A stretch of 64,000 nt of DNA from Octopus vulgaris. Its lineage: Eukaryota. The notes under the pieces were generated by a model. It worked only from the letters and a program-made list of their open reading frames with translations. It did no database searches and was not told the origin of the DNA. The DNA lies in NCBI GenBank assembly GCA_951406725.2, contig OX597836.1:28396001-28460000 (forward strand), in the 5' to 3' direction. Shown piece after piece: positions 1-57,436 of this stretch. The position numbers were made by a program, and so were the translations under genes. Within the stretch, counting starts at the first letter, position 1. Each line of letters opens with the position of its first letter.

Positions 1-3000
1 GCTTCTGGAAATGATCCCGGTACTCTTTAGCATCGGTGAATTTAGCTTCACACTGGCCACATGCAACAAAGCCTTCACGTTTGATGATCGCTTGGCTCAT
101 ACACAGCCTCTTGTGCCAGTTTAATTCTTCGTTCCTGTTGAATCCTTTCAGACAGATGTCACATTCATAGGTTGTCGTGTGTGTGGCCTCATGATTGTTC
201 AGATGTTGCAAGTTGGAAAATGTCTTCTTGCACACTCGACACGTAAGCTTGTTGTCGTTCTCTTTGGAGGATTCCTCGGCCAAAGGTGTGCATTCGTGTT
301 CTTTCAAAGCCTCCTCAACAGCAAATGACCGTCGGCATTTGAAGCAGTGCAACGAGAAACAGCGAAGCAGGTGGTTTTCAAGGCCAAGCTTTGTTGAGAA
401 AGTGCGACCACAGTTGTGGCAGGAATGAATGTTTTCTGCAGCAGCCCTTGCTGGGTCACAACGCAGGATGTGTTTCTGCATAGAATCCTTGCGTGAGAAG
501 CAGCGGCCACATTGCTCACACTTAAAAATATCTGTATGCATCGCTAAATGACGGAAAAGATATTTCACAGTGCGGAAACTTTGTTCACAGATATCACACT
601 GGTGTAGAGCATTCTCATTTTCCTCCCCTTTGTTGCTACTACACGCATGGCTAACCAGTAGGTGGCGTTGTGAAAACTTCCTTTTGCATCGGTCACATTT
701 CCAGTGATCAGCTGGTGCAGTGGCAGGCTTTTCTCCAGGTTCCAGCTGTGAAGTGGAGAGCTCAGAATCGTCTTGTGTAAAACTTAGTCTGTCATCAGCG
801 TTGTCACCAGTCTGGAGCACAGTTGAGTTGGCATTGCTGTCACACCGATGTTTCATTAGAGATTCCTTTCGTGTAAATCTCTTGCAACAGAGATCACAAC
901 GAAAGCGGTCAGTGTGCGCTGGTGCATGTAGTTTCAGATACTTTATGTTGGTGAATCTTTTGCCACAGACGCAGCAGGCATAGAGAATGACATCGTCCGT
1001 CTTATCAATCAAAATATCTATGCCATTGTCTTTGGCAAGAATTTTACATTTCCTTCTGGATTCCGGTGAATCACTGGAATCATCTTGGTTATCCTCATTA
1101 GCTGTATCAGAGTCCTTGAAATCAGACTCTAGTACTTCTCCTTCTTCACATTCATCTTCACCTAAAATGTCATCAGTGTCGTCATCGGCCAAATTCTTGC
1201 TGCTTTCATCATCAGTGACAGGTGTTTTCTCACTGTCACTGTTCACCAAGTCAGCTTTCTGTGAAGTTTTGCTCTTTGATGGAGACTGCTCTTGAGAAGT
1301 TTTGGCTTTGATGGCTACTGATGTGGTGTTGCTTGTGTTCTTGCTGCTGACCAACGACACGGCTGTGTTGCTGTTGGCCGGTGTAGTTGCCTGCGTTTGC
1401 AATGCTTTCGGTGGTCGCCCACGACGACGAGTTGCACCAGGCACTTTCACAGTTTCTTGCAAAACCTTTTTCTCCAATGGCTTTTCAGGTTTTGCTACTT
1501 TACTCGGCTCTTCTTCATCAATTGCTTTGTTACCAGTTGTTCTAATACCCTTCAACCGTCGTGTGGGTAACACCCGTGCCAGGCTTTGCGAAGGCGAGGC
1601 AGCCTGGACAGGTGACTGACTAGTACTGGTTTTTACTTTCTTAGGTGTTGACAATTCTGATTGTGATTTGTCACTGTCAGAACTGGATTTTGGTTTTCTC
1701 CCCAAATGAAGTGCCTGGCGTGTGCGCTTCCTAGGCCGACCTGGGCCACGTGTCTTTTTCAGGGGCTCTTCTTTTGTGGTGCTAGCTTCAGCGGCACCAT
1801 TACTTTTATCTGTAACATCACTGGCAACTGTTGGCTGGCAACTCTCAGAACTCTTTGCAGTGACCTGTTCCGGTGTGGCTTTATTCTCTTCACTCTCACC
1901 TTCACCTTCATCTTTATTCAGCCAAGCAACGTCAGCAACAACATAGTCAACAAACTCTACCAATTTGTTAACTTTGTTCTCAGTTGTCTCACTTGACCCA
2001 TCAAGTTTTCCCAACTTCCCATCATCTCCATCTTCAATGGCACTGGTGCTCTTAGTCTCAGAATCATGACTGACATCTTCTTCAACCAGTTTTATTGTAA
2101 CAGGTTCCTCTGACGTGCTTTCTTTGCAGTGAGTATCCATCTCCTCAGCTGCTGTTACACAACTTGTGTCATCGTCATTTCTCTCTTCTTTGGCCAGCAC
2201 GCTGACAACATTAGCATCCAACTGAACAATCTCGAACGACTGACTTTCCATAACTAAGCTGTTCTCATTTGCTTTGGTGTCCACCTCATCTGTAACTACA
2301 GTGGTAGTATCATCAAGCATTGATTCATCAACAGGTGAATGCTGCACAGCTTTGTCAACCAGCAGACGTTCTTCAACCTCTTCACCGGTACTTTCTGCTT
2401 CCTTTACCACAAACTCTTGATTTACTACAGACTCCTGCAGACACTTTTCTGCGGAATTCTCTTCTACTACAGACACAGCTACTTCAAATTTCTCACCATC
2501 ATTCGATTCCTCTACAACAGAGTTTTTGCTAACAACCGACTCTGTATTTACATCAATGACAGATTTATCACAAACCACGGTCTCTTCTATAATGGTCGGT
2601 ATAATAATGCTCTTATCGTCTTCAGTATGTGCAGACATGTCTATCTCTTTCACAGTCTCTACAAGGTAGTTCTCACACTTAATAGTATCAGCTATTTTCT
2701 CCTCCTGCGACTGAGACATTCCTATCATATTCTTATACATTTCAGATATGCTCTCATGAGTGTTTTCAACATGCACCACTTGAACTGTAGATGAACCGGC
2801 TGCTATATTCTGTTCATCGCTGTTGTTGTTACTGTTATTGTCACCACTGCCTTCAGGGATATAGTCAGTGTTGGAGACAGTTTTAACATACATACTGTCA
2901 AGACGTTCGAAAGCTTCTGATACAGTCACTTCACTAACATGTTGATAACTTTCCTTATCTTTGTAGTCAAGGTCACTGTCTTCAAGCGATATCTTGGCTT

Positions 3001-4029
3001 CTAGAAGAGCAATTTTGGTGATATCTGGTTTCTTACACTGAGTTCCGATATCCTCGTTTTTACCGACATCCAAACTTTTCTCGACAAGTTCAGCAAGGTT
3101 CTTATCTAAAATTAAGTTAGTAGACTCTGTAGAATTTCCAAAATTACAGAAATTTGCCTGACAGATGGCAACCTTATTCGAAGAATCAGCAACCTCGTTT
3201 ACCTTGCTTTCTTCAACAGATTCAGATGAAATAACAATGGTTTCTTTGGCATCTTCAGTATTATTAATTTCATGAATGTTACTGTCATTATTATTATTAT
3301 TATTATTATCATCGTCATCATCATTATTATTATTATTACCGCTGCTATTACTGTTGTAGCTCTGAGTTTTCACTTCTGTCAATTCACTATACGACTCACC
3401 GCCATCATTAGATCCAACGGCAGCAGCAACTTCTTCTTCTTCATCATTTTCGTGGTCATCACTGCTGCCTTTATCCAAAGAATTAGCTAAATCTTCACTA
3501 GTCTGGTCCTCATACTCAAACAGATTACCCTTTGAGCCTTGCAATTTCACCTTGCTGTGTTTTGAGAAGAGATGGTTCCACATGACATCCAATCGGTAAC
3601 TACGGTAACCGCACTCCACGCATCGCAGGATCTGGCCTTTGTGCTTCTTCATGTGTCGTTGGTAGTTGCTCCTGTTCACAAAACCAATGTTACAAACCGA
3701 ACAGTGAAACTTAGATTTCCGACTCCGAGTTTTGCCTCCACGAGGGTTGCTGTTGGGGACAAGGTGGGCCCTCAAGTGCTTAGCAAGGTCCACCTGGCTG
3801 TTGAAAACATTTTCACATTTGCTGCACTTGTACTCTTTAATCTCCTCACTTTGGATTAATGACAAGATGTGGTTCCTGTAGAGTTTATCGCAGTCTGTTT
3901 GCATCCTCTCCAGGGATTCCTCAGACACTGACACCACTTCCGTAGCCTGGTGCTGCAAAATTGCAACAGTTGCTTCCGAGGTAATTTCATCAGTGTTGCT
4001 ATCTTTCTCAGTTAGCAACGACACCATCA
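1..4029 (-). CDS. PRDM10/15-like PR-domain zinc finger protein, large coding exon (3 N-terminal C2H2 fingers, long acidic/Asn-rich linker, 2 AT-hooks, 10 further C2H2/C2HC fingers); continues beyond window start
   Basis: Polypyrimidine-CAG acceptor at 4030-4032; phase 1 matches the upstream donor. Manual translation gives YKCSKCENVFNSQVDLAKHLRAH, FHCSVCNIGF..HMKKH, GPGRPRK, RRRGRPPK, YACCVCGKRF..HAPAH, LTCRVCKKTF..HEATH, all in one frame. Probably absent from the ORF track because it runs off the window without a stop. Confidence 0.93.
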
Positions 4030-4137
4030 CTGAAAAAAAAAAAAAAAAGATTTTATATGGTGGGAAAACATCGGAAATTAAAGGAGATTATTCACTTAGT
4101 AATAGATGCTTGTGTATATGTGTGCATAACAAGTTAA

Positions 4138-4228
4138 CCCTTTTGTTATCATATATCTACTGAAAACATTCGAAATAATTTGAATATATAAACATTACAT
4201 TTGGCAGAATAATCTGAAAGCTAAAGGG
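4138..4228. mobile_element. Short piggyBac-type MITE remnant
   Basis: TTAA|CCCTTT...AAAGGG|TTAA termini; same left end as the element at 19937. Confidence 0.5.
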
Positions 4229-4324
4229 TTAAAATAGGAAGACTGTAACATAGGACCAGGGGATGTCCCAGGTGCGTTCATATGAAAAGGGTTAAACATG
4301 GACTGATATGTCTCACACACACAC

Positions 4325-4543
4325 ACACATGCCAGCGAAAGGTACCCATGCAGGTGACACATGAATGGCATCCATGCTGGTGACATGTAAAAGGACCCAC
4401 CGCTTTCTTGGAGTGGTTGGTGTTAGGAAGGGCATTCAGCTGTAGAAACCGAGCCAATAAGAGCTTGATGCCGCTCTCCAGCTTACCATCTCCAGTCAAA
4501 CTGTCCAACCCATGCCGGCACGGAAAACAGACATTAAATGATG

Positions 4544-4574
<31 letters not shown>

Positions 4575-4575
4575 C
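4325..4575 (+). mobile_element. RTE LINE 3'-end fragment with (GAT)n tail
   Basis: GGTTGGTGTTAGGAAGGGCATTCAGCTGTAGAAAC...ACATTAAATGATGA; same sequence terminates the RT remnant at 28500-28927. Confidence 0.75.
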
Positions 4576-4755
4576 CATCACCCTCATAATTACTATAATT
4601 CTTGCCACCTCCAACTCAAATTCCTACAGTTACTACCACAACTACTACAACTTGAAAGATTACCACCACTACCCCCACCCCACCACCTTAACCATCAAAT
4701 GCTACCACCATGGTGTGAACAGTGTAAGGAAAATTTTGAACCTAAAACTTTACTC

Positions 4756-5175
4756 GGATCTTTTTGGTTTGAACAGCAGTTTTTAACATAATTTCCACAT
4801 AACTAAACACTTTTAAACTTCGTATACTGGTAGAATGTGTTTATAAAACATCTTTTTCTCTTGGTTTTATTGAGAAAATTCCATAGTTTGTAAGATATTT
4901 GTTGTTTTATTTTCTCCAATTTCTGCAATTTCAACCAATCACTGACGTCCATTGAGGTAAAAAAAAACATTCTGTGCCGTATGAATATGTCCCTCGTTTA
5001 AGAAACAGATTGGGTTTATTTACATTTGTGAAGAAAAAAAGATACCCTTCCCTCACCCCTAACCGTAGCCCTAAAACAGATAGAAATGCAATAGATCGAT
5101 ACTAGGGTCATAATTATGGGTGACAATTTCATATGACACCACTAGTAAAAACTGCCGTTCAAACCGAAAAGATCC
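4756..5175. mobile_element. ~420 bp MITE, Merlin-type (GG-terminal TIRs, 8 bp TSD)
   Basis: TIRs GGATCTTTTTGGTTTGAAC / GTTCAAACCGAAAAGATCC; TSD CTTTACTC/CTTTACAC; near-identical copy at 33240-33661. Confidence 0.85.
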
Positions 5176-5187
5176 CTTTACACTTAC

Positions 5188-5434
5188 CCCTATAATCTTT
5201 GCATGGCTTCACTGGTTTGCCCAACTTTTTAGCATAATGTAAGGCATACCAGACCTTCAGTTGCTCCCCTTCTTGGATGGTTCGGATGCTGTTGTAGAAG
5301 ATGTTTGTTCCTAACTGGTAGGCAATGCAGTTCTGTTCCTCCTCGTTCTGTGCACATTGCACCAAACACATCCAGTTGCAATCGTTTTCGTTAGAAGTGT
5401 CGAGAGAGACAACAGCACCGTCTTTAGATAAGAT
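5188..5434 (-). CDS. PRDM10/15-like gene, exon encoding C-terminal half of the PR/SET domain
   Basis: ILSKDGAVVSLDTSNENDCNWMCLVQCAQNEEEQNCIAYQLGTNIFYNSIRTIQEGEQLKVWYA carries the PR-domain NWM...EQN...(E)L.VWY motifs; CAG acceptor 5435-5437, GTAAGT donor 5187-5182; phases 0/1 consistent. Confidence 0.93.
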
Positions 5435-5529
5435 CTGTTACGGGAAGATTACAAGAGTTAGAAAAAAAAAGACAAGCTTCATCTAATTATAACGAAAAAT
5501 AAAGGAAAAGAATTAAATGATGTAATACC

Positions 5530-5755
5530 TATTTCTTTATTACCCACAAGGGGCTAAACACAGAGGGGACAAACAAGGACAGACATAGGTATTAAGTCGA
5601 TTACATCGACCCCAGTGCGTAACTGGTACTTAATTAATCGACTCCGAAAGGATGAAAGGAAAAGTCGACCTTGGCGGAATTTGAACTCAGAACGTAACGG
5701 CAGAGGAAATACGGCTACGCATTTCGCCCGGCGTGCTAACGTTTCTGCCAGCTCT
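5530..5755 (-). mobile_element. tRNA-derived SINE (family B)
   Basis: B-box-like GAGTTCAAATTCC, conserved TTTCATCCTTTCGG core; 16 bp TSD TAAATGATGTAATACC on both sides. Confidence 0.85.
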
Positions 5756-6095
5756 GTAAATGATGTAATACCGCAAGAGTTACCTCCCTTCAATTAGTCA
5801 ACAAAACTATAAACAATAAAATATAAACCTATTCTGATAATTACTAAACAGCATGAGAAGACACCCCCCCCCCTGTGTACAGACATGATTTACAGCATGG
5901 TTAGAATTTCATTGACACACACGTGTCAATTAAACACGTGTGTGTGTGTGTGTATAATAGCACTAAGCATTGAGGGTGATAGCAGATAAGTGAGGTCTTA
6001 ATGACGGGGAATAACAGAGTCGAGATGGCACCGAAAGGTGGTGATTGGTGGAAACAGTAGGGGGTGGGGGTCATGGGAATTGGAAGTGGATTAAG

Positions 6096-6131
<36 letters not shown>

Positions 6132-6134
<3 letters not shown>

Positions 6135-6297
6135 GGCAGGCTTCTTTCAGTTTCCATCTACCAAAATCCACTCACAAAGCTTTGGTCAGCCTGAGGCTAT
6201 AGTAGAAGATACTTGCCCCATGTCTTCTACTATAACCTCGGGCTGACCAAAGCCTTGTGAGTGGATTTGGTAGACAGAAACCGAAAGAAGCCTGTCA

Positions 6298-6298
<1 letters not shown>
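6132..6298. repeat. Fold-back of two SINE-A fragments, flanked by (TA)n
   Basis: ~77 bp arms GCAGGCTTCTTTCAGTTTCC...GTAGAAGA / TCTTCTAC...GAAAGAAGCCTGTC with a short loop. Confidence 0.85.
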
Positions 6299-6339
<41 letters not shown>

Positions 6340-6445
6340 TATACATTCATACATACATATAATATAGGGTAAGATTATTAATAATAATAATAATTTTACC
6401 AAGTAGTCAGCATGTTAAAAAACCTTTTAGGTAAATTATACAAAA

Positions 6446-6691
6446 TATTCTATAGTTATATACATAATTATAATGAGGGTCAGCTAATTGTCTCGCCACG
6501 TACTGAATTAGAAATAGATGCTAATGTCTTTTCAACTACCATAAAAACTCTGAGAAAAATAACACACAGTGTGTTACTTTTCTCAGAGTTTTTATGGTAG
6601 TTGAAAAGATACTAGCATCTATTTCTAATTCAGTTCATGGCGAGGCAATTAGCTGACCCCTCGTTATAATTGTGTATATAATTATAGAATA
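6446..6691. repeat. ~245 bp imperfect palindrome
   Basis: ~120 bp arms centred on TAACACACAGTGTGTTA. Confidence 0.9.
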
Positions 6692-6745
6692 ATTTATATA
6701 TATATATATATACACACATATATAAATACATATAAGCTGACACTT

Positions 6746-6978
6746 AGGGTGACGAGCTGGCAGAATCGTTAGCACAATGGGGTGAAATGCTTAGCGGTAT
6801 TTCGTCTACCATTATGTTGAGTTCAAATTCTGCTGAGATTGACTTTGCCTTTCATCTTTTTGGGGTCGATTAAATAAGTACCAGTTATACACTGAGGTTG
6901 ATGTAATTGCCTTAATCCCTTTGTCTGACCTTGTTTGTCCCCGCTGTGTTTAGCCCCCTGTGGGCAATAAAGAAATAA
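6746..6978 (+). mobile_element. tRNA-derived SINE (family B)
   Basis: GAGCTGGCAGAATCGTTAGC...GAGTTCAAATTC...AATAAAGAAATA; flanking direct repeat CTGACACTT. Confidence 0.8.
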
Positions 6979-7154
6979 GTAACTGACACTTGTCTAACCT
7001 GTTTGTGTATGGAATGAAAGACGATGTAAAGTGATAAGAATGAAACACATTTATACACAGATGCAAGTCTCCTCATTAAAAAAAAGTTTTAAAAAAGCAT
7101 GAAAGGAATCTTTTGATTATTTCTGAAGGTAAAATTATCAATAATTGGAATTAC

Positions 7155-7317
7155 CTTTAGAATGAAGATATTGTCAGTATCAAGGTCCTGAGTTGTTCTT
7201 CTGGCCTCAAATGGTCCAAACTGTGTCTTGGCTGGTATCACGTGTTGAGCCACCACAGTTAGAGAGGAATCTATGTGTTCTAACAACATCAAGTTGGACG
7301 GTAGTGTAAGGCGTGCC
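7155..7317 (-). CDS. PRDM10/15-like gene, exon encoding N-terminal half of the PR/SET domain
   Basis: ARLTLPSNL...IPAKTQFGPFEA...FILK (PR-domain A..LP and FGP motifs); CAG acceptor 7318-7320, AAG|GTAATT donor; phases 2/0 consistent with neighbours. Confidence 0.9.
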
Positions 7318-8069
7318 CTGACAGGTGACAACACAGGAACAGATTGACAAAGTTTAGAAGAAAGATTAAAAAAAGAAAACAACATTTAAAAGGTTGTTGG
7401 AGTAGCAAAAATGATACAACATCGTGTGTGTTCATGTGCGCTTATCACCATTGAGATAAAGCACCTTACTTGAAGTGTGTATGTGTGTATGCATGTGTGT
7501 GTGTGTGGAGAAGGTAACTCAGGTAACTGGGATAACTCTGACATAAAACCTGTGGCTCAGTGGTTACCGATGATGTTGACTTGTTCTTCTTTTCGGATTA
7601 TGGCTGCTGTTGCTTAGTGAGTGGGATTGACTCAGTGCACAGCCTTTCCTCACTTTAAAAAAAATCTTCCTGCACAGGCATTGCACGATAACAACATTGT
7701 TCATGATTGTTGATGGTGCTGTGAGTCTCAACGGAATGGCTGGCTGTAGCCTTAAAAAGCAAATAAAATTCACATTCGATCACAGCACCAATAACAGTTA
7801 AGCCTCGTGCAATGGCCATACTCGATAACGAGGGGGTAGCCATCATATTTATACAAATACACATAAAAAATTAAATGTTAATTAACCAATTAGATTCTAA
7901 TGTTAATATTCAAAGATATAACACATTATCAACCCTATTTATGTTTGAAAGAGACAGAGAGAGGGGAGACAAAGGAGAAAGCAATAAAGAGGGGTGAAGA
8001 AAGAGAAAGGAGAGAGAAAAAGGGAAGGAATGAAGGAGAGATAGACAGACAGCTAGAAATATTACTTAC

Positions 8070-8340
8070 TTTGACATTACTTTGAACTCTCCAACTGGTG
8101 TGTTGAGTCCAAGTTCTGGACATTCTTCAGTGAGGTGGTCACCGCCACATACATCACATCCAGCATAGAGGTCAAGGAAGAGTGTGGTTGCTGTTGCAGC
8201 ATCGGATACTGTTGCAACTGTAACTGCTTCGGCAGCTTCTGTGACGACAGCTGTTGCAGTCGTAGCTCCGCCGAGGGCTGACACTGCGGCTGTGACTTCA
8301 TCTTGGGACGCACAGATTATTGTAGGTTTCTCTTCTGGAG
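8070..8340 (-). CDS. PRDM10/15-like gene, exon with Ala/Thr-rich segment and PR zinc knuckle
   Basis: CDVCGGDHLTEECPELG resembles the PRDM10/15 knuckle (CxxC...CPxxG); CAG acceptor 8341-8343, GTAAGT donor 8069-8064; splicing gives VMSK|ARLTLP. Confidence 0.88.
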
Positions 8341-8449
8341 CTGTTGAGACAGAATACGATAAACAAAACACTTTTGAAATTAAGGCTTGTTGTAAAGGCA
8401 TTCAGACCACCACCACCACCACTATTGTTATTATCAATATTATTATTAT

Positions 8450-24046: not shown

Positions 24047-26584
24047 AATCCAGGTTTAGTCACAGATCAATCAAGATAGTAATGTTTTAACAATGTGATG
24101 TATACTTGCCATCTCAATATGGCTAACCACTAAGGGTGGGTGTTACTGTGGCTTGTAGTCCCAGGAGAACATTGTCTCCAGCTGGCTTTAGACACACTTT
24201 CTGTGCCCTTAAGGTATTTGCAAAGTGAGGTCATCCTTCCCTCGTCAACCTAAGTGATACGCACGGAACAGTTTTGTGACAACATAGTGTCTCGATACAT
24301 TCTAATGAAAATGTGATAGAAAGAGATAATGCCACTCTCTCTTTGGAAGAGAAATTAATTTTGGTGTTGATAAAAAGGCAGAAAACACCGGAAGCAGTCA
24401 AGTGGAGCAGGAGACATAGCCTGCAAAATTAAGGAAAAACGTATTTAGACTTATTTATCATGAAAAAATGGCATGCCTTCACAAGTAGCCCCTACCTGAC
24501 TTTATTTTCACCCCCACCTCAATCAAGAGAAGCTGTGTGTATGTGTGAGTAAGAAAAAAATATTTCTAACAGAAAAGTATGCTATTAAAATGAATTCTCA
24601 TTTACAGCTGTAGAAACATTGCCAGATAAGACTGGAGCCTGGTGCAGCCTTCTGGCTTCCCAGATCCCCGGTCAAACCGTCTAACCCATGCTAGCATGGA
24701 GAACGGACGTTAAATGATGATGATGATGATGATGATGATGATTCATCTTTTCTGCCAGCAATGACCTTCTCAGGCTCTCCAATATTTTAAATCATAATCA
24801 GAAACAATGGGGAGCAAGGAGTGAGGTTGCCAAAAGAATTATAATTTTTCAAATTTTTTTTTTATAGCATATAAATGTATTTATGGAGAGAAAAATATTG
24901 AAAAACATCATATTTGAGAGTGAGAAAGAAATGAGGTGGGGTTGTCTTAGGATGTGCTAGAAACAACAGCCAAATCTCCCTTAAATCACTCACTTTTTCC
25001 TCTGAAAATATTAACAATTTTAAAAATATCTTTTACAAAAAAGGCTTCTCCTATGGTTTCGAAGTGCAAAAAAAAAAATAATGGCCAAAACCGGTCTGGG
25101 GGAGAATGGTGATGAAGGGGTGGAAAAAAAAAAAAGAAAATTTCGTTAAAAAGTATCCATTTTTCTGGAAGTTATGAGGCAACAAAATTGATGCTGAAAA
25201 ATGGATGTCTTTTAATGAAATTTCTGTGGTTGGGGTGTACAATGCATATTCCATCATTTTTCCATTATTCAGACAGTTGTGAGGAAAGAAAAATTGAAGG
25301 AGTCACATTGTGTAGGTATGCCCAAAAAAGTACACAGAAATACATTATAAGAATTATCGTTTACATACCGTTCAAAAATCATTGTGGATAAATTTCTGCT
25401 ATGTGTTTTAGGAAGGTCTTGTAATTCTCCCATGCTCGGTCGTACGTCATATTATAAAGGTCTCTGTACATGGCCTCGTTGACGTGTAACCATCGCATAT
25501 CTCCACTCGACGTGAATTTGTATTTCAGTCTACTCTTAATTCGGTTCCAGTAGCCCTCCACTTGATTTCCACATACACCATTCTCTGGGTCCACAGTTCC
25601 ATGTATGTATCCAAGGCTTTCTAGATTCCGGTAACTAGCCCACTGGTCTGTAAACACTATAGACCCTGGTTCTACGTTGTTGATAATGAGTGACTCCAGT
25701 GTCTCTGTCTTTCTATCTTCAACATGTTGCAGATGTCCTTTTTTCTGGGTGTTGTCGTAGAAACCAACAACCCAGTATGAATGCACCACACGCCCGGCTT
25801 CATTTTTTCTCCGAAACATTAAACTCTCATCTATTTCTACAACATGATTCGAGCCACCTAATTTTTTTTTATCTCTTAATAATTTCTGCAAACAGATTTC
25901 ACGGCAATATTCATACCACTGTATTGCTGTGACTTTACTGACATTGTTTGCTGACATGGAACTGGTTACCGGCATTTCAAAAATAAAATCGAAAATTAGA
26001 TTGAAAATTTTGTACACAGAAAGCTTACTCTTCTCCAAGAAAGTCTTGGTACGGATTGACACTGCATTCTTGCACTTGTGGCATCTCCATACCACCCCAT
26101 CTATGGCACGCTGAGAAGGCCTTATGCTCATTTCCTTTCCACAACTACATGTCTTCTGATTCGAAATGATTCCATTGTCTTTCAGATATTGTATGAAATT
26201 CTCTTCCGATAAATTTTGGGCCATTTCATATCTTGGACAATCCATCTCGAAAATCAAATTCTAAAAAAATTAGGAAAGAAAGTTCAAATAGTCAAAGAAA
26301 CAAAATCAAAGTTAAAAAATTAAGAAAAAAGTCCAAACAGTCAAAAAATTAGCAAAAAACAGTCAGAATTAGCAAAACAATTAATTACAGGCGGAAGCTG
26401 TGGAGATTGTGATAATAAAACAAATGTTTCCCTCACCACCACCAAAAATTAATTTCTCTTCCAAAGAGAGAGTGGTAATTATTTATTTCTATCACATTTT
26501 CATTAGAATGTTTTGAGACACTATGTTGTTACAAAACTGTTAAAACTTTACAAACCTGATCAACCTGTGACTAAACCTGGATCC
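24047..26584 (-). mobile_element. Merlin (IS1595/IS1016-like) DNA transposon with ~145 bp TIRs; left TIR interrupted by another repeat
   Basis: 24048-24090 plus 24268-24370 are the reverse complement of 26435-26582; right end GGATCC-type; encloses the transposase ORF. No TSD recognised. Confidence 0.8.
25379..26245 (-). CDS. Merlin/IS1595-family (ISXO2-like) DDE transposase, open ORF ~288 aa
   Basis: Zn ribbon CSC..WRCHKC; VEIDES, WVVG, TDQWASY..L and NQVEGYW motifs; first ATG at 26245 (ORF track starts at TTG 26257). Lacks the usual NHSxxFV segment. Confidence 0.88.
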   Translation of the reverse strand: MDCPRYEMAQNLSEENFIQYLKDNGIISNQKTCSCGKEMSIRPSQRAIDGVVWRCHKCKNAVSIRTKTFLEKSKLSVYKIFNLIFDFIFEMPVTSSMSANNVSKVTAIQWYEYCREICLQKLLRDKKKLGGSNHVVEIDESLMFRRKNEAGRVVHSYWVVGFYDNTQKKGHLQHVEDRKTETLESLIINNVEPGSIVFTDQWASYRNLESLGYIHGTVDPENGVCGNQVEGYWNRIKSRLKYKFTSSGDMRWLHVNEAMYRDLYNMTYDRAWENYKTFLKHIAEIYPQ

Positions 26585-33995: not shown

Positions 33996-34040
33996 GTTGC
34001 TTAGGAATTTATTTTCTCGATGCCACCTGCAGAGGGCGTC
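33996..34040 (+). promoter_or_regulatory. Candidate RFX X-box and CTCF-like site upstream of HYLS1
   Basis: GTTGCTTAGGAAT at 33996-34008 (X-box-like) and TGCCACCTGCAGAGGGCGTC at 34021-34040 (CTCF-core-like on both strands). Confidence 0.4.
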
Positions 34041-35369
34041 ACTAATCATAACACGAATATGGCTTCCGATGTCAGTAAGTCACGGTTGGATTTCACGGAA
34101 GAAGAAATAAGAAAGGAGCTCTTTCGGTATGGCATCAAAGATATCAACCGAAGTAGTTTACGTCAATTTCGAGAAGAACTTCGGAATTTGGTGAAAAAAA
34201 TATCCTCAAGTTCTCTTCGTAATGTTGGTAAATCCACCTCGATTTCGTCTTCTTTCAACAACGTAACTGACACTTGTTTGAAAATCTCTCCTCCAGAACC
34301 CTTTTCTAAAACTCCTCCAACTGCCAAGAACGTTGACGATAAGTCATGCCTGCCTCATACAGACGATCGTCGTCCTGCTAATTCCATGGAGCCGTCGATT
34401 GTTACCGTTTCTCACAATCGGCCCCAGAAAACAGCTGAATGTTCCAAACACGTTGCTTGCAGAAGAAGCTGTCAATTGTTCAACAGTGCCAATAAGGTGG
34501 ATGGTCACTCGGGTATGACACTCAACCATCAATACACACAAACTCAACAGCCACTGACTAATCGATCGGAAACGGAACATGAAAAGCAGGAGAATCTCCT
34601 TCAAACTTTCACCAGAAAAAACGTTCCGCAGCCAAACCAGGTAAATAGATTTGATCATCCCAAGAACAAAGAAAACGCCTGGTCTCGTCATATCGCACCT
34701 TCGTCATCTCTCTCATCGCAAGTATCGGTCCCCAAACCATCACAAATCGCCTCCAACGACACCGAAAGCAATGCCATGAAAGATTATTTACTAAAGACGT
34801 TGAACAAACCTCCACGACTAAACACTTATGTTACCAAGAGGAAGATCTCTCGCAAAGGCTCCGATGGTAAACGTTACATCGACAGAAGTGAATCTGTGTG
34901 TAGTATCAGTAGCACCAGTTGTAGTAGTGTCTGTGGCAGTTGCTGTAGCAGTATCGCTGACCCCGCTGAGTGCCAGAATCGTCTGAGAGAGATAACAAAC
35001 AGAGGCGGCCAGTTCTGTCAAAGATCCCTGAGTTCTTGTGATAACCGGTTCAGGTCATCAACTATAGTTACTCCATCACAGCCGAGGTTGAAGAAAAACA
35101 GAAAGACAGACCCCGTGAGTAGGTTCCATGAATTCCAAAGCTACTGGAAATTGCACAAGCCTCCCGGTGAAAATAATCACAACGCCCTTCGGTGGAGCAT
35201 TAAAGAGAAAATTGCCAAACACGACGTCATAGGAAGCCGTCCACGGAAAACTTTCGTGCCCAATAATTATGTGATACCCTCACAAAACCCGAGACATTCT
35301 CTTCGATGGCAGGTGCGGACTGATCTGGCTCACGGCGCGATGCCAACCACCAAATATAACGACTATTAA
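34020..35369 (+). CDS. HYLS1: HYLS1-like centriolar/ciliogenesis protein (single-exon CDS; ATG 34059 may be the real start)
   Basis: 449 aa uninterrupted ORF. C-terminal HYLS1 box KTDPVSRFHEFQSYW..PGENNHNALRWSIKE and PNNYVIPSQNPRHSLRWQVRTDLA; N-terminal FTEEEIRKEL..G....SLRQFREELRNLV helix; Ser-rich linker. Confidence 0.9.
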   Translation: MPPAEGVTNHNTNMASDVSKSRLDFTEEEIRKELFRYGIKDINRSSLRQFREELRNLVKKISSSSLRNVGKSTSISSSFNNVTDTCLKISPPEPFSKTPPTAKNVDDKSCLPHTDDRRPANSMEPSIVTVSHNRPQKTAECSKHVACRRSCQLFNSANKVDGHSGMTLNHQYTQTQQPLTNRSETEHEKQENLLQTFTRKNVPQPNQVNRFDHPKNKENAWSRHIAPSSSLSSQVSVPKPSQIASNDTESNAMKDYLLKTLNKPPRLNTYVTKRKISRKGSDGKRYIDRSESVCSISSTSCSSVCGSCCSSIADPAECQNRLREITNRGGQFCQRSLSSCDNRFRSSTIVTPSQPRLKKNRKTDPVSRFHEFQSYWKLHKPPGENNHNALRWSIKEKIAKHDVIGSRPRKTFVPNNYVIPSQNPRHSLRWQVRTDLAHGAMPTTKYNDY

Positions 35370-41325: not shown

Positions 41326-42227
41326 ATTACTAATATTAATTGTGGCGCAATGTCAGTAATTTTGGTGGAGGGGGTTGAGTCGATTACATCAATCTCAGTG
41401 CTTCACTGGGCCTTATTTTATCAATCTCGGAGGATGAAAAGCAAAGCTGCCCTCGGTGGAATTTGAATTCAGAATGCAAAGAGGGACGAAATGTGGCTAA
41501 GCATTTTCACTGGTGTGCTAAGGATTCTGCTAGCTTGCCGCCCTAAAAAGCATAATCGCTTCTCTTGCAGGGAACTGAGTCTCTGATTCCTGTGTCATGG
41601 GCAGGGACACTTACCAGTATACTATCAAGGGCCAGCCAAATTATTACTAATATTAATAGAGAGGGTAAAGTGGTGAGCTGGCAGAATGGTTTGCATGCTA
41701 AGTAAAAAGCTTAATGGCATTTTTGTCCGTCGTTACATTCTGAGTTCAAATTCCACTGAAGTTGACTTTGCTTTTCATCCTTCTGGGGTCAATAAAATAA
41801 ATACCAGCTGAACACCAGGGTCAACGCAACTGAGTTATATATGCATAAAGAAGCCCATTGTATACACACACACACACATACAAGGCTTCAATAGCACCCA
41901 TTTTCCACTTCGCATGTCCATGCTGTTTCCAACACTTGCACCATAACACCACCAATAGTTTCAGACCCCACTTCTCTGATTTCTCTATTGATACGTAAAC
42001 CCTCTCTTTCAGGTGTCTTCAGGAGAAAGTCAAGTCTGGGGAACGTGTAGGCCATTCAAAGTAGAGCTCACACATAGTTCCAGCAAGATGGGACAACTGC
42101 TCGTACCACAAAAGAAACAATGCAGTTGCTACGGCAATAGTACTTTGGAGAGAGAATAATCTCCCTCTACAGCAATGTCAACTGGCCTTCATGTTCCCTA
42201 GACTTGATACATACATACAGGAGGGAA

Positions 42228-43230
42228 GAGAGTACTTCCTCGAAAATCCAGAGGAGAAGGACTTCCTGGAAAGTTTCAAGGAAGGGAGTACTTCCTGGAA
42301 AGTTCTTAGGAGGGTTGAAGGGGAGGGAGTACTTCCTGGAAAGTCCGAGGATGGAGTGAATGGGAGGTGTTACTTCCTGGAAAGTTTTGAGAAGGGGTGA
42401 AGAGTAAGGAGTACTTCATTGACAGTTCCAAAGAGGTGTGAAGGGGAGGGAGTATTTCCTGGAAAAGTCCAAGAAGGGTTAGTTAGTTAGTTCCACCCCT
42501 CCTGGACGTTTCTAGGAAGTACTACTTTTTCACCCTTCCTTCGAACTTTTCAGGAAGTAACTAAACATCCTCGAACTTTTCCAGGAAGTATTCCCTTCAG
42601 CACTCCTCGGAACTTTCCAGGAAGTACTTTGCTTCACCTCTCCTTGAAACTTTCCAGGATGTCCTCTGAAGTTTCCAGGAAGTACTCCCATCCCTCTATG
42701 GAGCTTTCCAGGAACTCCCCCTCCTCAACTTTTCCAGGAAACACTACTTCTCCTTCACCCCTCCTTGGAATTTTCCGAGAAGTTTCCCTCCTTGGACTTT
42801 TCATGAAATACTCTCTCCCCTTCCCACTTCAACAAAGAAGTCCCCTCCTCGATCTTTTCCAAGAAGTATTCCCTCCCCTTCAAAACCCTTCCTTGAAATT
42901 TTCCAGGTAATATACTTCCTGGAAAGTTCCTAGGCTGTGTACTTCCTGGGAAATTCCAAGGTGTGGGTGACGGGTAGGGAGTATTTCCTGGAAAGTTCAG
43001 AGGAGGGGTGTGAATGGGAGTACTTCCTGGAAAATCCGATGCGTGGGACTTCCTTGAAAGTTCCAAGGAGTGGTGTGCTGGGGATGGAGTACTTCCTGGA
43101 AAGCTTTGAGGAGTGGGGTAAAGGAAAAGGAGTACTTTCTGGAAAATTCTGAGGAGGGGGAACTTCCCGGAAAGTTCCAAGGAGTGGTGTGCTGGGGATA
43201 TAGTACTTCCTGGAAAGTTCCAAGGAGGGC
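42228..43230. repeat. Array of ~29 GAGTACTTCCTGGAAAGTTCC-type units in forward-reverse-forward blocks
   Basis: ~7 forward units (42230-42480), ~13 reverse (42500-42908), ~9 forward (42912-43225); purine-rich variable spacers. Confidence 0.9.
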
Positions 43231-43559
43231 TTGAATATGGGGGGGTTGGGGGAATAACAGTGTGGAAGAATGACATTAAATGGCAAGAATAAAGTGGAGG
43301 ATGTTTATGTGTGCAAATGCATAAACAGGAGAGAAGGCAAGAGAGGAAGATAAGGTGTGAAATTCTGGTGTAGGCAGAGGGAGGGAAATGTAGGTTACAA
43401 AAGTGAGGGATGATTGAAGACCAAAAGGTGTGAAAGTTTTGAGAAGAAAGATGAGCTCCTGTTCCCTCTGAAAGTGGTTGGAGGTCTGATGTTGAAAGCC
43501 AAGCCAAAGACCAAGAGATGTTGGATGGCTTGGAGTAGAAATATTGAGCTATTACCATG

Positions 43560-43835
43560 TGAACTTTCTCCATTTCTATTCTTATTCTAGCAACTAGACT
43601 TCCAAAACATCCTCCTCCACAACTAACTAGGTCTCCTAAGTAACAGAAACTACCTACTATCTTTAGGGATCCTCCTGGGTATTTGAGAAAATCTATTCCC
43701 CATGTATTCTTTATTTGTTTCTTCGGTGCACCTACCACAAACAAAGTCTATTTTTTTCTGTTAACTTCCCTGTAAGTCCCCTGCACCTCTTGTGTGTCCA
43801 TAGTCTGCACTTGGTATACTATATGGAATTTCTAC
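43560..43835 (-). mobile_element. RTE LINE RT fragment
   Basis: LKIVGSFCYLGDLVSCGGGC..ARIRI. Confidence 0.75.
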
Positions 43836-44564
43836 AGATTGAATAAGGTCATTTCTCTAAAAGGAGTATTGACCATCACAGTCTGCAGGCTGTTGCTCCA
43901 ATCTGATCTTTGCCAGATCAGATTGGAGCCTAGTGCAGCCTTCTGGCTCACCAGCCCTCAGTCAAACCGTCCAACCCATACCAGCATGGAAAGTGGACTT
44001 TAAATGATGATGATATATATAAAGGAATAAAAAAAAAGGGGACAAGAACGCAAACCATCCAGACAGTTAGATGATACAAAAAAAGGGACAAGAAAAAACT
44101 AGGATGGGTCATTCGGAGTTTTCTTTCCTCAGGTGATTTCCAGATTATCTTTGCAATTTTGACTGGTTATACTCGAGATTTCTCCAATCTGGCCAGCCCC
44201 AAGGAAAAAACTATGTTAAGAGCACTAGATTCCTTGGAAGAAAGCAGCGATTGTATACAAAAACAAGGATGGAAAAAGAAACAGAGAAATGGTACACAAA
44301 TACAAATAACAGGACATTAACAACAGGTGTCTTTTGACTAAGGATTGGCATGGGCATAAATGTTAGCATGCCGGGCAAAATGAAGATAAGTATTTTGTCT
44401 GTTTTTATGTTCTGAGTTCAAATGCCACTGTGGTTGACTTTGCATTTCATTCTTTTAAGGTCAACAAAATAAGCACCAATTGGGGACTGGGAGGGATGTT
44501 ATTGATTAACCCCTTTCCCCAAAAAGTTTCAGGCCTTGTGCCTATAATAGAAAGGATTCATAAC

Positions 44565-44935: not shown

Positions 44936-47779
44936 TATATATGTAAAAATTAAATTATATATTTTGTACTTCATTGTGTTTTGCTATGTGTCAGCTTCCC
45001 CATGAGAGTTGATCTATGATTTACTTGAGGACTGATCTGGGTCTTAATCATGGGCCTGCTGAATTAGGTTTGCTAACCTGAGATTTGAAAACTGATGTAC
45101 TGGATCAGGGCTGACTTTGGACTAAACAGCTACAAATTACAACAAACTATACTTCAAGAGGTTTGTCGTTATGGATGTTGGTGAATGTCCTACAGTGAAT
45201 TAAGCTATATTTAGATGTGTATATGAAACCATATACAATATGATATATTTAATAAGTATAATTAGTGTTGCTGTGAAAATATACTGTGAACAGGTCACAG
45301 AAGTCATGTTTATCCAACAGATATAAATATCATTTAAAGTGATATAAGAAAAAAATAATTACATGTGGTGTTCTACCAAATGTATTTCATATTTTTATTT
45401 CAAATTAATGACTAAGCAGATATTTCTAGAAAATGACTTGTAAGGAAAAAGATAATTATAATAAACAAGTCATGATAGATATCTAAGTAACCATGAAACC
45501 TATCTGTTGTGCAACAAAAGCTAGGAACTGCTGCCTTATACTATTTTGGCCGTTTGAGCCCTGAGCTCAACTCTTACTGAATGAACTGTCTTTCATTTCT
45601 TCAAGGTTGAGCCATAAAGTTTACAGTTTTAGTTCACCATTTCAAAGTGGTAGATTAGTTGAACTGGTGAACCAGTGATGCCTTGCAGAGTATATTGGTC
45701 TGGTTAAATGAGATGGTATTTGTTCTGGCTTAGTGCATTCCGAGTTTCAGTCCTGCCTCTTGACATTGTGAAACTGAAAGGATGAATGAATGGGGATGTT
45801 AATATCTATCGCCTGTTACTCTCAACACCCGTATACCAGTTGGTAAGAGACGACACATTTTCAAACCTGTAGTCTCTCTCTATCTCTCTCTATATATAAA
45901 TATATACATACATAAATCTCTCTCTCTTTATATTTCATTAATTGCGCAGTTAAGCTCAAATAACGTGAAAACGGTCATTTTCTTTTCTTTTCGTCGCCGT
46001 AATACGAAAACATTTGCAAATGAGAGGCATCAGTAACCTTACTGACGCCAATGTTTATATGTACTGATGACATATTTTGAATATTTCTAAACAAAGCATA
46101 TTTCATTCCAGTATTTAACCAGCTAGTGGGAAGAGATAATTATTGAAAGAGGAAGGAAAAAAGAGAGAGACAGAGAGACACTTATTGTCATTTCAAAATG
46201 GGATGGGCGACAACAGTTGACATATATACATACACATATATATATATTTATATCTACGTTTGTCTCAGGATGTATGTATGTGTATATATATATATACACA
46301 TAAGTAGGTACGAATGTAATCGCGTGATTAAAGTAAAATGCGTATATTTAGAGGACATGGATCTCGAGTTATCGCCCCTGTGCGAGCTCTCTGCTGTTAT
46401 TTACAATTCTTTGAAGCTTCCTGAACAGAAAGTGATCAATGGTAGGCATATAGTGATTTACCACCGCCAGAAACACAGCATTCAACCAGCTTTGCACGGT
46501 AAATAACACACACGCAACGCAACACACATATACCTATATGTGTGTGTACACGTCTGTGTATTGACATATATATATATATGTACATACATACATGTATGTG
46601 TGTGTATACGTGTGTCTATACATATATTTAATTTCATTTGTAAACGCAATACGATGTCGGAATTCTTTGCGACTTAAAATATTTGTTTGTATCTACGTGT
46701 ATATATATATGATTTCTCATTCTAAAGAAATGTTGTGTGTGTCTATGTCGTTTCGCTTCATAACAAATGTACGTCTTCACAGCTCTCTCCAAAATGAAAT
46801 GTATTCGTGTCTACTTCGTCTTCTAAACAAGTGCATGTTTGATATATGTCTATATGTCGTTTATCTATCTTCTTGAGAATTACTGTGTCCATGTCGTTTT
46901 GCTCCATAACAACTGTATGCCTTTGTAGTTTCTCTACAAAACAACTATGTCTCTGAATGGTCTTCTAAACAAGTATTTGATATTTGGTCTCTTGTTCGAA
47001 ACCGTGTGTATGTATGGTGTTTATCGCCTCCGAAATAAATGTTTGCGTCTATCGCCTTTCCTCCTTGAAGCAAGTCTCTGTGTGGTTCCATGTCTTCCGT
47101 TCTATGACTTTAATATGTGGATGGACTCAAGAGCGACACACACACACTTGATGGCGTTGTATTTTTATTCGCTGTCCATTTACACCAGTCTTAGAGTACG
47201 GAGGTCGATTTACACTGTTACACCTCCCCTAAATTTGTGGCCTTGTTCGTAATTTAAAAGTCGATAACATTTAGTAACATGTTTTCGATAATGTTTTGGT
47301 TGAATTATTGTGCGTGTCACACACACATGCGATGTCTTGTATATAGAGTTTCCTTTTAAACAAGTATTTTGCGTGCACTGGTTTGTTACATAGTGCATAT
47401 AATGTGTGTGTGGGTATATATATGTACATACATACATACATACACATCTCAATTTAGTCACCACGTGTGTCTTTTTGGTTTTGTGTCTTTTACGTATTTT
47501 ACTAATTTCGTGTCTCTGTGTGTGACGACATCTCTGAACGTAGTAATTTTAGTGGTCGGAACATTTGGATACTTAAATTAGAACCTTGTGGCTGTAAACT
47601 GCTGCAGCATGAGCCATACACGAATTGGTTGTATTCACACACCACACTGTACACAAGACAAACACTTGGAGCTAATGCTAGATATAACAACCAAATCTCC
47701 TCCAAGTCACTCTACTTCCTTGAAGGAAGAAGAAGAAAAAAAGCTGTACATTCAATAGATAATATTTACAAAATGATAT

Positions 47780-57050: not shown

Positions 57051-57436
57051 TGAGGAATATTTGCCATCTCAACATAGCTAACCACTAAGGGTGGGTGTTA
57101 CTGTAGTGAGGAATATTTGCCATCTCAATATAGCTAACCACTAAGGGTGGCTTGTAGCCTCAGGAGAATCTGGCTTTAGGCACACTTAAAAAAAAAAAAA
57201 TTTTTTTTAAGCCAGCTGGAGCCGATGTTCTCCTGGGGCTACAAGCTACAGTAACACACCACTAAGGGTAGGTGTTACTGTAGCTTGTAGCCTCAGGAGA
57301 ACATGGCTTTAGGCACACTTTAAAAAAAAAAATTTTTTTTTTAAAGCCAGCTGGAGACGATGTTCTCCTGGGGCTACAAGCTACAGTAACACCTACCCTT
57401 AGTGGTTAGCTATGTTGAGATGGCAAATATTCCTCA
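57051..57436. repeat. Rearranged fold-back repeat with internal direct and inverted duplications
   Basis: Begins TGAGGAATATTTGCCATCTCAACATAGC and ends with its reverse complement; two (A)n(T)n centres; related to 24105-24260. Confidence 0.85.

Follow-up and report, generated by a model that had tools for sequence, protein, structure and literature searches.

Mammalian hypervariable minisatellites are dispersed, G-rich, head-to-tail arrays whose units differ in length, are highly polymorphic, and share a short core that was later tied to a DNA-binding protein. In molluscs, the Cg_HINE / Pearl arrays of Crassostrea gigas are short, degenerate tandem arrays, likely multi-locus, with a 4-base microsatellite on one side and related monomers that keep shared motifs; in the available part of their description, their flanks are conserved and bear subterminal inverted repeats together with a 3' palindrome, and the arrays stand in one orientation relative to those flanks (PMC7492417). 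Oppositely oriented blocks of tandem repeats able to fold back are reported, in the excerpts available, for the foldback transposons FB, Galileo and Tetris (PMC4079207). STAT-consensus palindromes were spread in primates by the LTR family MER41B, in which two GAS sites lie 21 bp apart in the LTR and binding was demonstrated by ChIP-seq, as stated in the portion of the source at hand (PMC2897888).

The octopod array described here lies in a stretch of 64,000 nucleotides, hereafter the window, and resembles each of these systems in part. Its tandem degenerate units fall within the 10-60 bp of minisatellites; in contrast to the mammalian ones, it is internally inverted and nearly frozen across species. 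With Cg_HINE / Pearl, it has in common the short degenerate array that likely occurs at several loci, the shared motifs of its monomers and a microsatellite at one side, a weak likeness given that such runs are common in the window. However, its flank is single-copy, its orientation switches twice, and the flanks, subterminal inverted repeats and 3' palindrome of Helentrons (HINE/Pearl) were not found at the locus, where a carrier diverged by more than 20% would escape. Like MER41B, the array likely belongs to a repeat family spreading STAT-consensus palindromes, but its sites are predicted from sequence, it has no LTR, and it packs 21-24 sites into 1 kb, mostly 26-44 bp apart. Unlike the foldback transposons, it has three blocks and shows no terminal domains, no target-site duplication and no shared flanks. 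Judged by the features given in the available parts of those reports (PMC4079207, PMC7492417), the array at this locus is a member of neither the foldback nor the Helentron-carried class. It is likely a mollusc minisatellite of the dispersed type, internally inverted and with a core resembling a transcription-factor site, from an apparently undescribed repeat family. We suggest, with a probability of about one half, that this 28-unit, three-block array belongs to a dispersed family of octopod minisatellites, that the palindromic core of the family was once a protein-binding site, and that the array is now ageing near the background rate.

Table 1. Coordinates of the array, its junctions and its surroundings in the window
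Feature	Position	Strand	Remarks
PRDM exons	7994-8341, 7149-7319, 5189-5449, 2-4036	-	
Multi-copy repeat remnant, left	41900-42207	.	From contig depth and loose ends; other copies diverge from the window at 42207
Short TACA microsatellite	42208-42220	+	Between left remnant and first unit
Forward block 1	42228-42480	+	7 units (42233-42453); spacing 27, 29, 41, 41, 41, 41; period-41 array
Tail-to-tail junction	42476-42495	.	Short TTAG stutter
Reverse block	42490-42912	-	12 clear units (42504-42895) and 1 decayed unit (42824)
Head-to-head junction	42901-42924	.	At self-complementary unit head; two cores abut over TATA
Forward block 2	42913-43230	+	9 units (42913-43204); 114-bp higher-order period
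Purine-rich (0.66) stretch, 345 bases	43231-43575	+	About single-copy depth
Multi-copy repeat remnant, right	43576-43840	-	From contig depth; other copies diverge from the window at about 43576

Scanning the window with an 18-base core placed 28 clear units at 42233-43221, in addition to one decayed unit, and the remaining 63 kb contained only one place matching this core at no more than 4 mismatches. The preliminary description had counted about 29 units in forward, reverse and forward blocks, and this layout was confirmed. Units are 21-44 bp long, each a chain of short palindromes followed by a G-rich tail, and they align as one degenerate monomer in which the core is succeeded by a tail ending at varying lengths. 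The spacers are truncated, decayed copies of that same tail. Hence, the conserved unit of about 20 bp between variable spacers proposed earlier holds as regards the conserved core, but the well-conserved part measures about 12 bp and the spacers are homologous tails. A dimer of a short (26-28 bp; 21 in one case) and a long unit (about 41 bp) is recurrent, and a short unit followed by a purine-starting unit occurs seven times, in both orientations. Single units, short-plus-long dimers and the 114-bp trimer were duplicated inside blocks and between blocks: 42568-42596 and 42846-42874 in the reverse block are 93% alike, and 43045-43113 and 43159-43227 in forward block 2 are 87% alike. Homologous, tail-derived spacers and higher-order duplications indicate a minisatellite, and not isolated sites among unrelated spacers. 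The array holds 107 inverted pairs, its forward and reverse blocks forming long inverted arms of tandem repeats. That either flank can pair with the centre, as had been claimed, is borne out by the predicted RNA fold, in which both outer blocks pair with the centre (-518 kcal/mol, z=-12, 0/20 shuffles as stable); such pairing is expected of any inverted array. By contrast, the purine/pyrimidine asymmetry said to favour non-B DNA amounts to a weak potential: the array has no canonical four-tract G-quadruplex motif, a G4Hunter score of at least 1.5 in 11 of 978 windows, and a longest pure purine or pyrimidine run of 15 bases, so that G-quadruplex and triplex readings were set aside as weak. A heat-shock element was also rejected, with two pentamers seen by eye where three are needed.

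The STAT core is defined as TTC-N3-GAA in the available part of PMC2556238. We found this motif 23 times in 42201-43260 (1.06 kb) versus 14 times in the remaining 62.9 kb of the window, and TTCCNGGAA 16 times versus once; TTC-N3-GAA is intact in 21/28 units and TTC-N2-4-GAA in 24/28. Substitutions affect 23/336 cells (6.8%) at unit positions 2-13 and 87/386 (22.5%) at positions 14-27, and conservation of the 12-bp core exceeds that of the remaining unit 2-3 times. The contrast is kept when positions 18-19 are removed (tail 65/332, p=1e-6), positions at which CA in 12, TG in 3 and CG in 3 of 28 units indicate CpG decay in the tail (array CpG o/e 0.21). It appears in both base classes (A/T columns 3.6% vs 22%; G/C columns 12% vs 27%) and on neighbour-joining trees, among them one made from non-core columns only, with 24 steps in 12 core columns against 56 in 14 others (p=0.002; p=0.012 under a uniform-rate null allowing for the best choice of window, and p=0.045 by column permutation). 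Nine duplicated segment pairs, picked for similarity, differ at 12/120 core and 49/239 tail positions (p=0.012). The better conservation of the core over the spacers, the point on which the preliminary description had staked its reading, was thereby upheld, also after tree correction and the split by base class.

Within the core, the outer TTC and GAA triplets carry 6/168 changes and the inner three bases 10/84 (p=0.014; tree-aware p=0.03-0.05); G/C columns alone give 3 versus 8 (p=0.11), and the duplicated pairs, again picked for similarity, 2/60 versus 8/30. The centre base, which is free for STAT, is T in 26, C in 2 and A in none of the 28 units; no unit has the complementary base there, a pattern that tells against hairpin or opposite-register conversion having preserved the palindrome. 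The lower variability of the outer triplets fits STAT better than ETS, as one base of the ETS core is changed in four units. On the other strand, 15/28 units match what we take to be the ETS consensus, and 7/28 match the presumed NF-κB consensus. The canonical STAT-site motif named earlier is well represented, with the outer/inner contrast falling short of significance in G/C columns. By sequence, STAT is probably the best-fitting reader of the core; a protein of a now extinct mobile element or a zinc-finger protein may also have been the reader.

Parts of the stretch occur in 12 of 24 sequencing runs, from 7 studies and under 4 organism labels, and contigs of four of those runs were compared with the window at 80% likeness. 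In the run of the window's own species (X2, organism A), 42178-43839 is covered by a single contig that differs in 4 letters and is possibly not independent of the assembly; in that of a second species (X5, organism B), a single contig covers 42259-43900, with 61 differing letters and 64 gap letters. Each of these single contigs crosses both orientation switches, and since both are present in organism B, the switches are older than the split of A and B. Twelve of the differences in organism B are clustered at 42805-42832, crossing one core and the decayed unit. The matches listed for a third species (X8, organism C) include pieces from all three blocks and neither junction. For organism C, the array had 27/656 differences and the flank 13/425 (p=0.41, with low power at 3-5% divergence), the array count being drawn from three pieces in or mostly in the array and the flank count from one 425-base contig; a fourth piece (9/181), straddling the left array edge, was left out. 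The array changes between species about as fast as the flank, and a divergence of 3-5% separates neutral decay from weak selection poorly. Clean between-species changes fell in a core in 1/11 cases (p=0.07), among the 40 of 268 rows listed, a biased selection in which other contigs dilute the cores. Together with the outer/inner pattern in the duplicated pairs, this could reflect continuing selection on the cores. The units differ from each other by a mean of 33% over 32 bases, far above the between-species difference, and so the array formed long before the splits and is not being homogenised. The flanking repeat remnants diverge by 13-18% from the longest of their listed sister copies, a range bounded by the 80% likeness floor; the core divergence is about half of that, as expected if the cores began identical and aged alongside the remnants. 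A run only guessed to be RNA (X7) yielded three array contigs of 154-172 bases, each differing from the window in 1 letter and covered at depth 3-6; they show neither transcription nor editing.

Summed contig depth over 15 array bins was 7.3 (X2), 7.4 (X5) and 8.0 (X8) times that over 4 unique-flank bins, an excess corresponding to about 12-13 kb of single-copy sequence, depth not being equal to copy number; the depth profiles of the three DNA runs correlate at 0.95-0.96. The joints listed (15 of 185; sides of 20-35 letters, likeness 80) consist of two units in tandem with spacers absent from the window, in the order core, different spacer, and second core with an identical upstream tail. Several of them are common to X2 and X5, at about single-copy depth, beside each run's full-length contig for this locus. 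The depth excess and the tandem-unit joints were read as sister arrays elsewhere, and the summed depth and short joints suggest that the array is likely a member of a dispersed repeat family whose unit recurs at other loci. A carrier element for this family was not found at the locus. Viral contigs gave 0 matches to an exact two-unit pattern and, to a relaxed three-site pattern, 12 stretches that are mostly coding repeats and of which none has the unit's tail; metagenomes gave only 1 unrelated 30-bp repeat, prokaryote genomes 0 matches, phage records no match, and Rfam 0 matches in the window. In one of the viral stretches, from a microvirus-like contig (L008 1-115, L009 1480-1595), an 11-12-base intergenic tandem repeat has the identical palindrome, with no sign of kinship. 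A literature search returned no description of this octopod repeat; repeat databases and supplements lay outside that search, and a catalogue entry may exist. No relevant passage was met in the accessible text of PMC10048060, and in that of PMC13652810 no whole-word occurrence of STAT, satellite or tandem repeat turned up.

The array is set between remnants of two multi-copy repeats. We take the left one to be Tc1/mariner-like, from transposase-type peptide motifs, and the right one is presumably non-LTR retrotransposon-like, from a peptide motif; both labels are without a Pfam or PDB match. Three pieces related to the right remnant occur at other places in the window. In all three DNA runs, further copies of both repeats continue into sequence that does not resemble the window, and because they part from it at the remnants' array-facing ends, neither repeat carries the array. 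The left remnant comprises two transposase-like pieces back to back (minus from 42057, plus from 42078); many sister contigs cover 42028-42207 in one piece, which suggests that the inverted layout is a trait of a multi-copy derivative family. In the purine-rich stretch on the right, a 15-base match to the unit tail lies at 43432, and a position-weight scan detected no further unit there. A Pfam scan of 469/629 open frames of at least 45 aa recognised no exon near the array, which is situated 7 kb beyond HYLS1. From 0.11-0.26 at 42-45 kb, CpG o/e rises to 1.03 at 46 kb. In O. bimaculoides, gene bodies and satellites are reported to be methylated, and promoters and transposons scantly so, in the available part of PMC9476566; the array therefore likely lies in long-methylated DNA, perhaps in an intron.

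Under the proposed history, both orientation switches would have arisen from fold-back template switching during replication or repair, an established mechanism. The right switch would have occurred at the self-complementary unit head, and the left one would have left behind the TTAG stutter and a 42-base mirror copy: 42447-42488 is mirrored at 42555-42596 as an inverted copy (81%), stuttered TTAG bases included. A dimeric DNA-binding protein may have kept the core constant during the spread of the family, as the tails drifted in length and sequence. Afterwards, the whole array would have decayed roughly evenly, and any STAT binding today would be either a by-product or a co-option that came later. 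The cores are far more alike than the tails, yet the array diverges at about the flank rate; the simplest fit is that the contrast was set during the spread and has decayed evenly since. Host selection on any single site would also be weak, since more than twenty of them are redundant. Ageing is the likely state of the array, given the flank-like rate in organism C, the altered core in organism B, two badly decayed units, and CpG decay.

We also considered the array as a live homotypic STAT (or STAT and ETS) enhancer or decoy under host selection, whose sister arrays would form a repeat-derived JAK-STAT network; this seems a somewhat unlikely alternative. Its appeal lies in the many intact STAT cores, the restrained outer triplets, the matches to the presumed ETS and NF-κB consensus, and the survival of the array, including both switches, in two species. 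Repeats can carry inducible STAT1 sites, as with MER41 (PMC2897888), and a STAT reader is plausible because JAK-STAT transcripts were reported in the octopus white body, in the part of that paper available (PMC6522055). However, the array shows no excess conservation over the flank between species, and one core is altered in organism B. The low CpG o/e around the array suggests methylated DNA, whereas octopus promoters are scantly methylated in the available part of PMC9476566. In addition, induced tandem STAT1 sites prefer a spacing of 18-21 bp, in the excerpts available of PMC2897888, but centre spacings in the array are mostly 26-44 bp and only 2/27 (15, 21) come near it. Nor is either of the recognised neighbouring genes, PRDM and HYLS1, a known STAT target, and the G/C-only outer/inner contrast is not significant. 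The bolder idea that octopods possess genome-wide, repeat-born STAT super-clusters, with about 20 candidate sites per kb acting as switch-like enhancers or sinks of JAK-STAT signalling, is unlikely and would make an invertebrate counterpart of the MER41 interferon network, built from minisatellites instead of LTRs. A purely mutational minisatellite, in which the core was never bound and the G-rich tail simply slips and mutates faster, its CpG having decayed, is a rather doubtful account as well. It agrees with tail length varying through G/A runs, with CpG decay at positions 18-19, with many tail variants shared by descent in the short-plus-long dimer, and with the similar divergence of array and flank between species; but it leaves unexplained a core/tail contrast that outlasts the removal of those two positions, tree correction and the base-class split, and the centre base that never became its complement tells against hairpin conversion keeping the palindrome.

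The preliminary description had also offered the subterminal binding array of a foldback transposon; a transposase-binding array of a Mutator-like foldback element still recognisable at this locus is highly improbable. Such elements have long tandem-repeat inverted arms that can hold transposase sites, in the available part of PMC4079207, and the array likewise has inverted arms of forward and reverse blocks and a unit that likely recurs elsewhere. Nevertheless, three blocks replace two arms round a middle, and the array edges display no terminal inverted repeat of at least 8 bases and no 8-10-bp duplication: inverted matches of at least 8 bases between 42195-42240 and 43215-44100 were absent, and the direct matches were two of 8 bases, 150 and 360 bases beyond the right edge. 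The right flank is single-copy, and the neighbouring repeats' other copies do not continue into the array. A long-dead, fragmented carrier element is compatible with a dispersed, ageing minisatellite. Practically negligible is the chance of an assembly artefact or a repetitive coding exon, as both switches lie within single contigs of two species. An open frame of 330 aa (42755-43747, minus) does overlap the array, but it starts in the right repeat remnant and has no Pfam match; one array frame scores on SelB-wing_3 (E 1.7e-5), but no stretch of it passes by itself, and unit lengths of 26, 28, 29, 41, 43 and 44 break the frame. A CRISPR array, already dismissed in the preliminary description, was rightly rejected in view of the orientation switches, the homologous spacers of uneven length, the eukaryotic genes, and the lack of any Cas family in 469/629 frames of at least 45 aa.

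If the array is a relic, it would stand for an octopod repeat family not described before, whose twice-inverted layout is unusual; this would help repeat annotation and offer a clean case of a binding-site core kept inside a minisatellite. If STAT reads the array, it would supply a ready, testable set of candidate enhancers for work on immunity and regeneration in cephalopods, together with a natural reporter cassette for STAT, and would be a case of repeat-driven JAK-STAT rewiring outside mammals.

Several other features of the window were observed. At 45800-46100, a sharp change from CpG-poor to CpG-rich sequence, with donor-like sites on both strands, marks a candidate promoter or first exon, at a distance of 2.6 kb from the array. 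HYLS1 (34005-35369, plus), with its reading frame at 34005-35366, is a single coding exon after a splice-acceptor-like site; its CpG o/e is near 1, in contrast to the DNA downstream of it. The PRDM gene (PR/SET and C2H2 zinc finger; 2-8341, minus) has its coding start near 8.35 kb and contains a 1345-codon exon, and the best named homolog of its protein comes from Argonauta hians. An uninterrupted 293-aa frame at 25382-26260 (minus) carries an IS1595/Merlin-type transposase domain (E 3e-12), and decayed pieces of a similar transposase type were recognised by eye near 30.6-30.9 kb and 32.0-32.4 kb. At 57150-57392, a MITE-like 135-bp unit is present in 1.8 copies, its ends mutually inverted round A and T runs.
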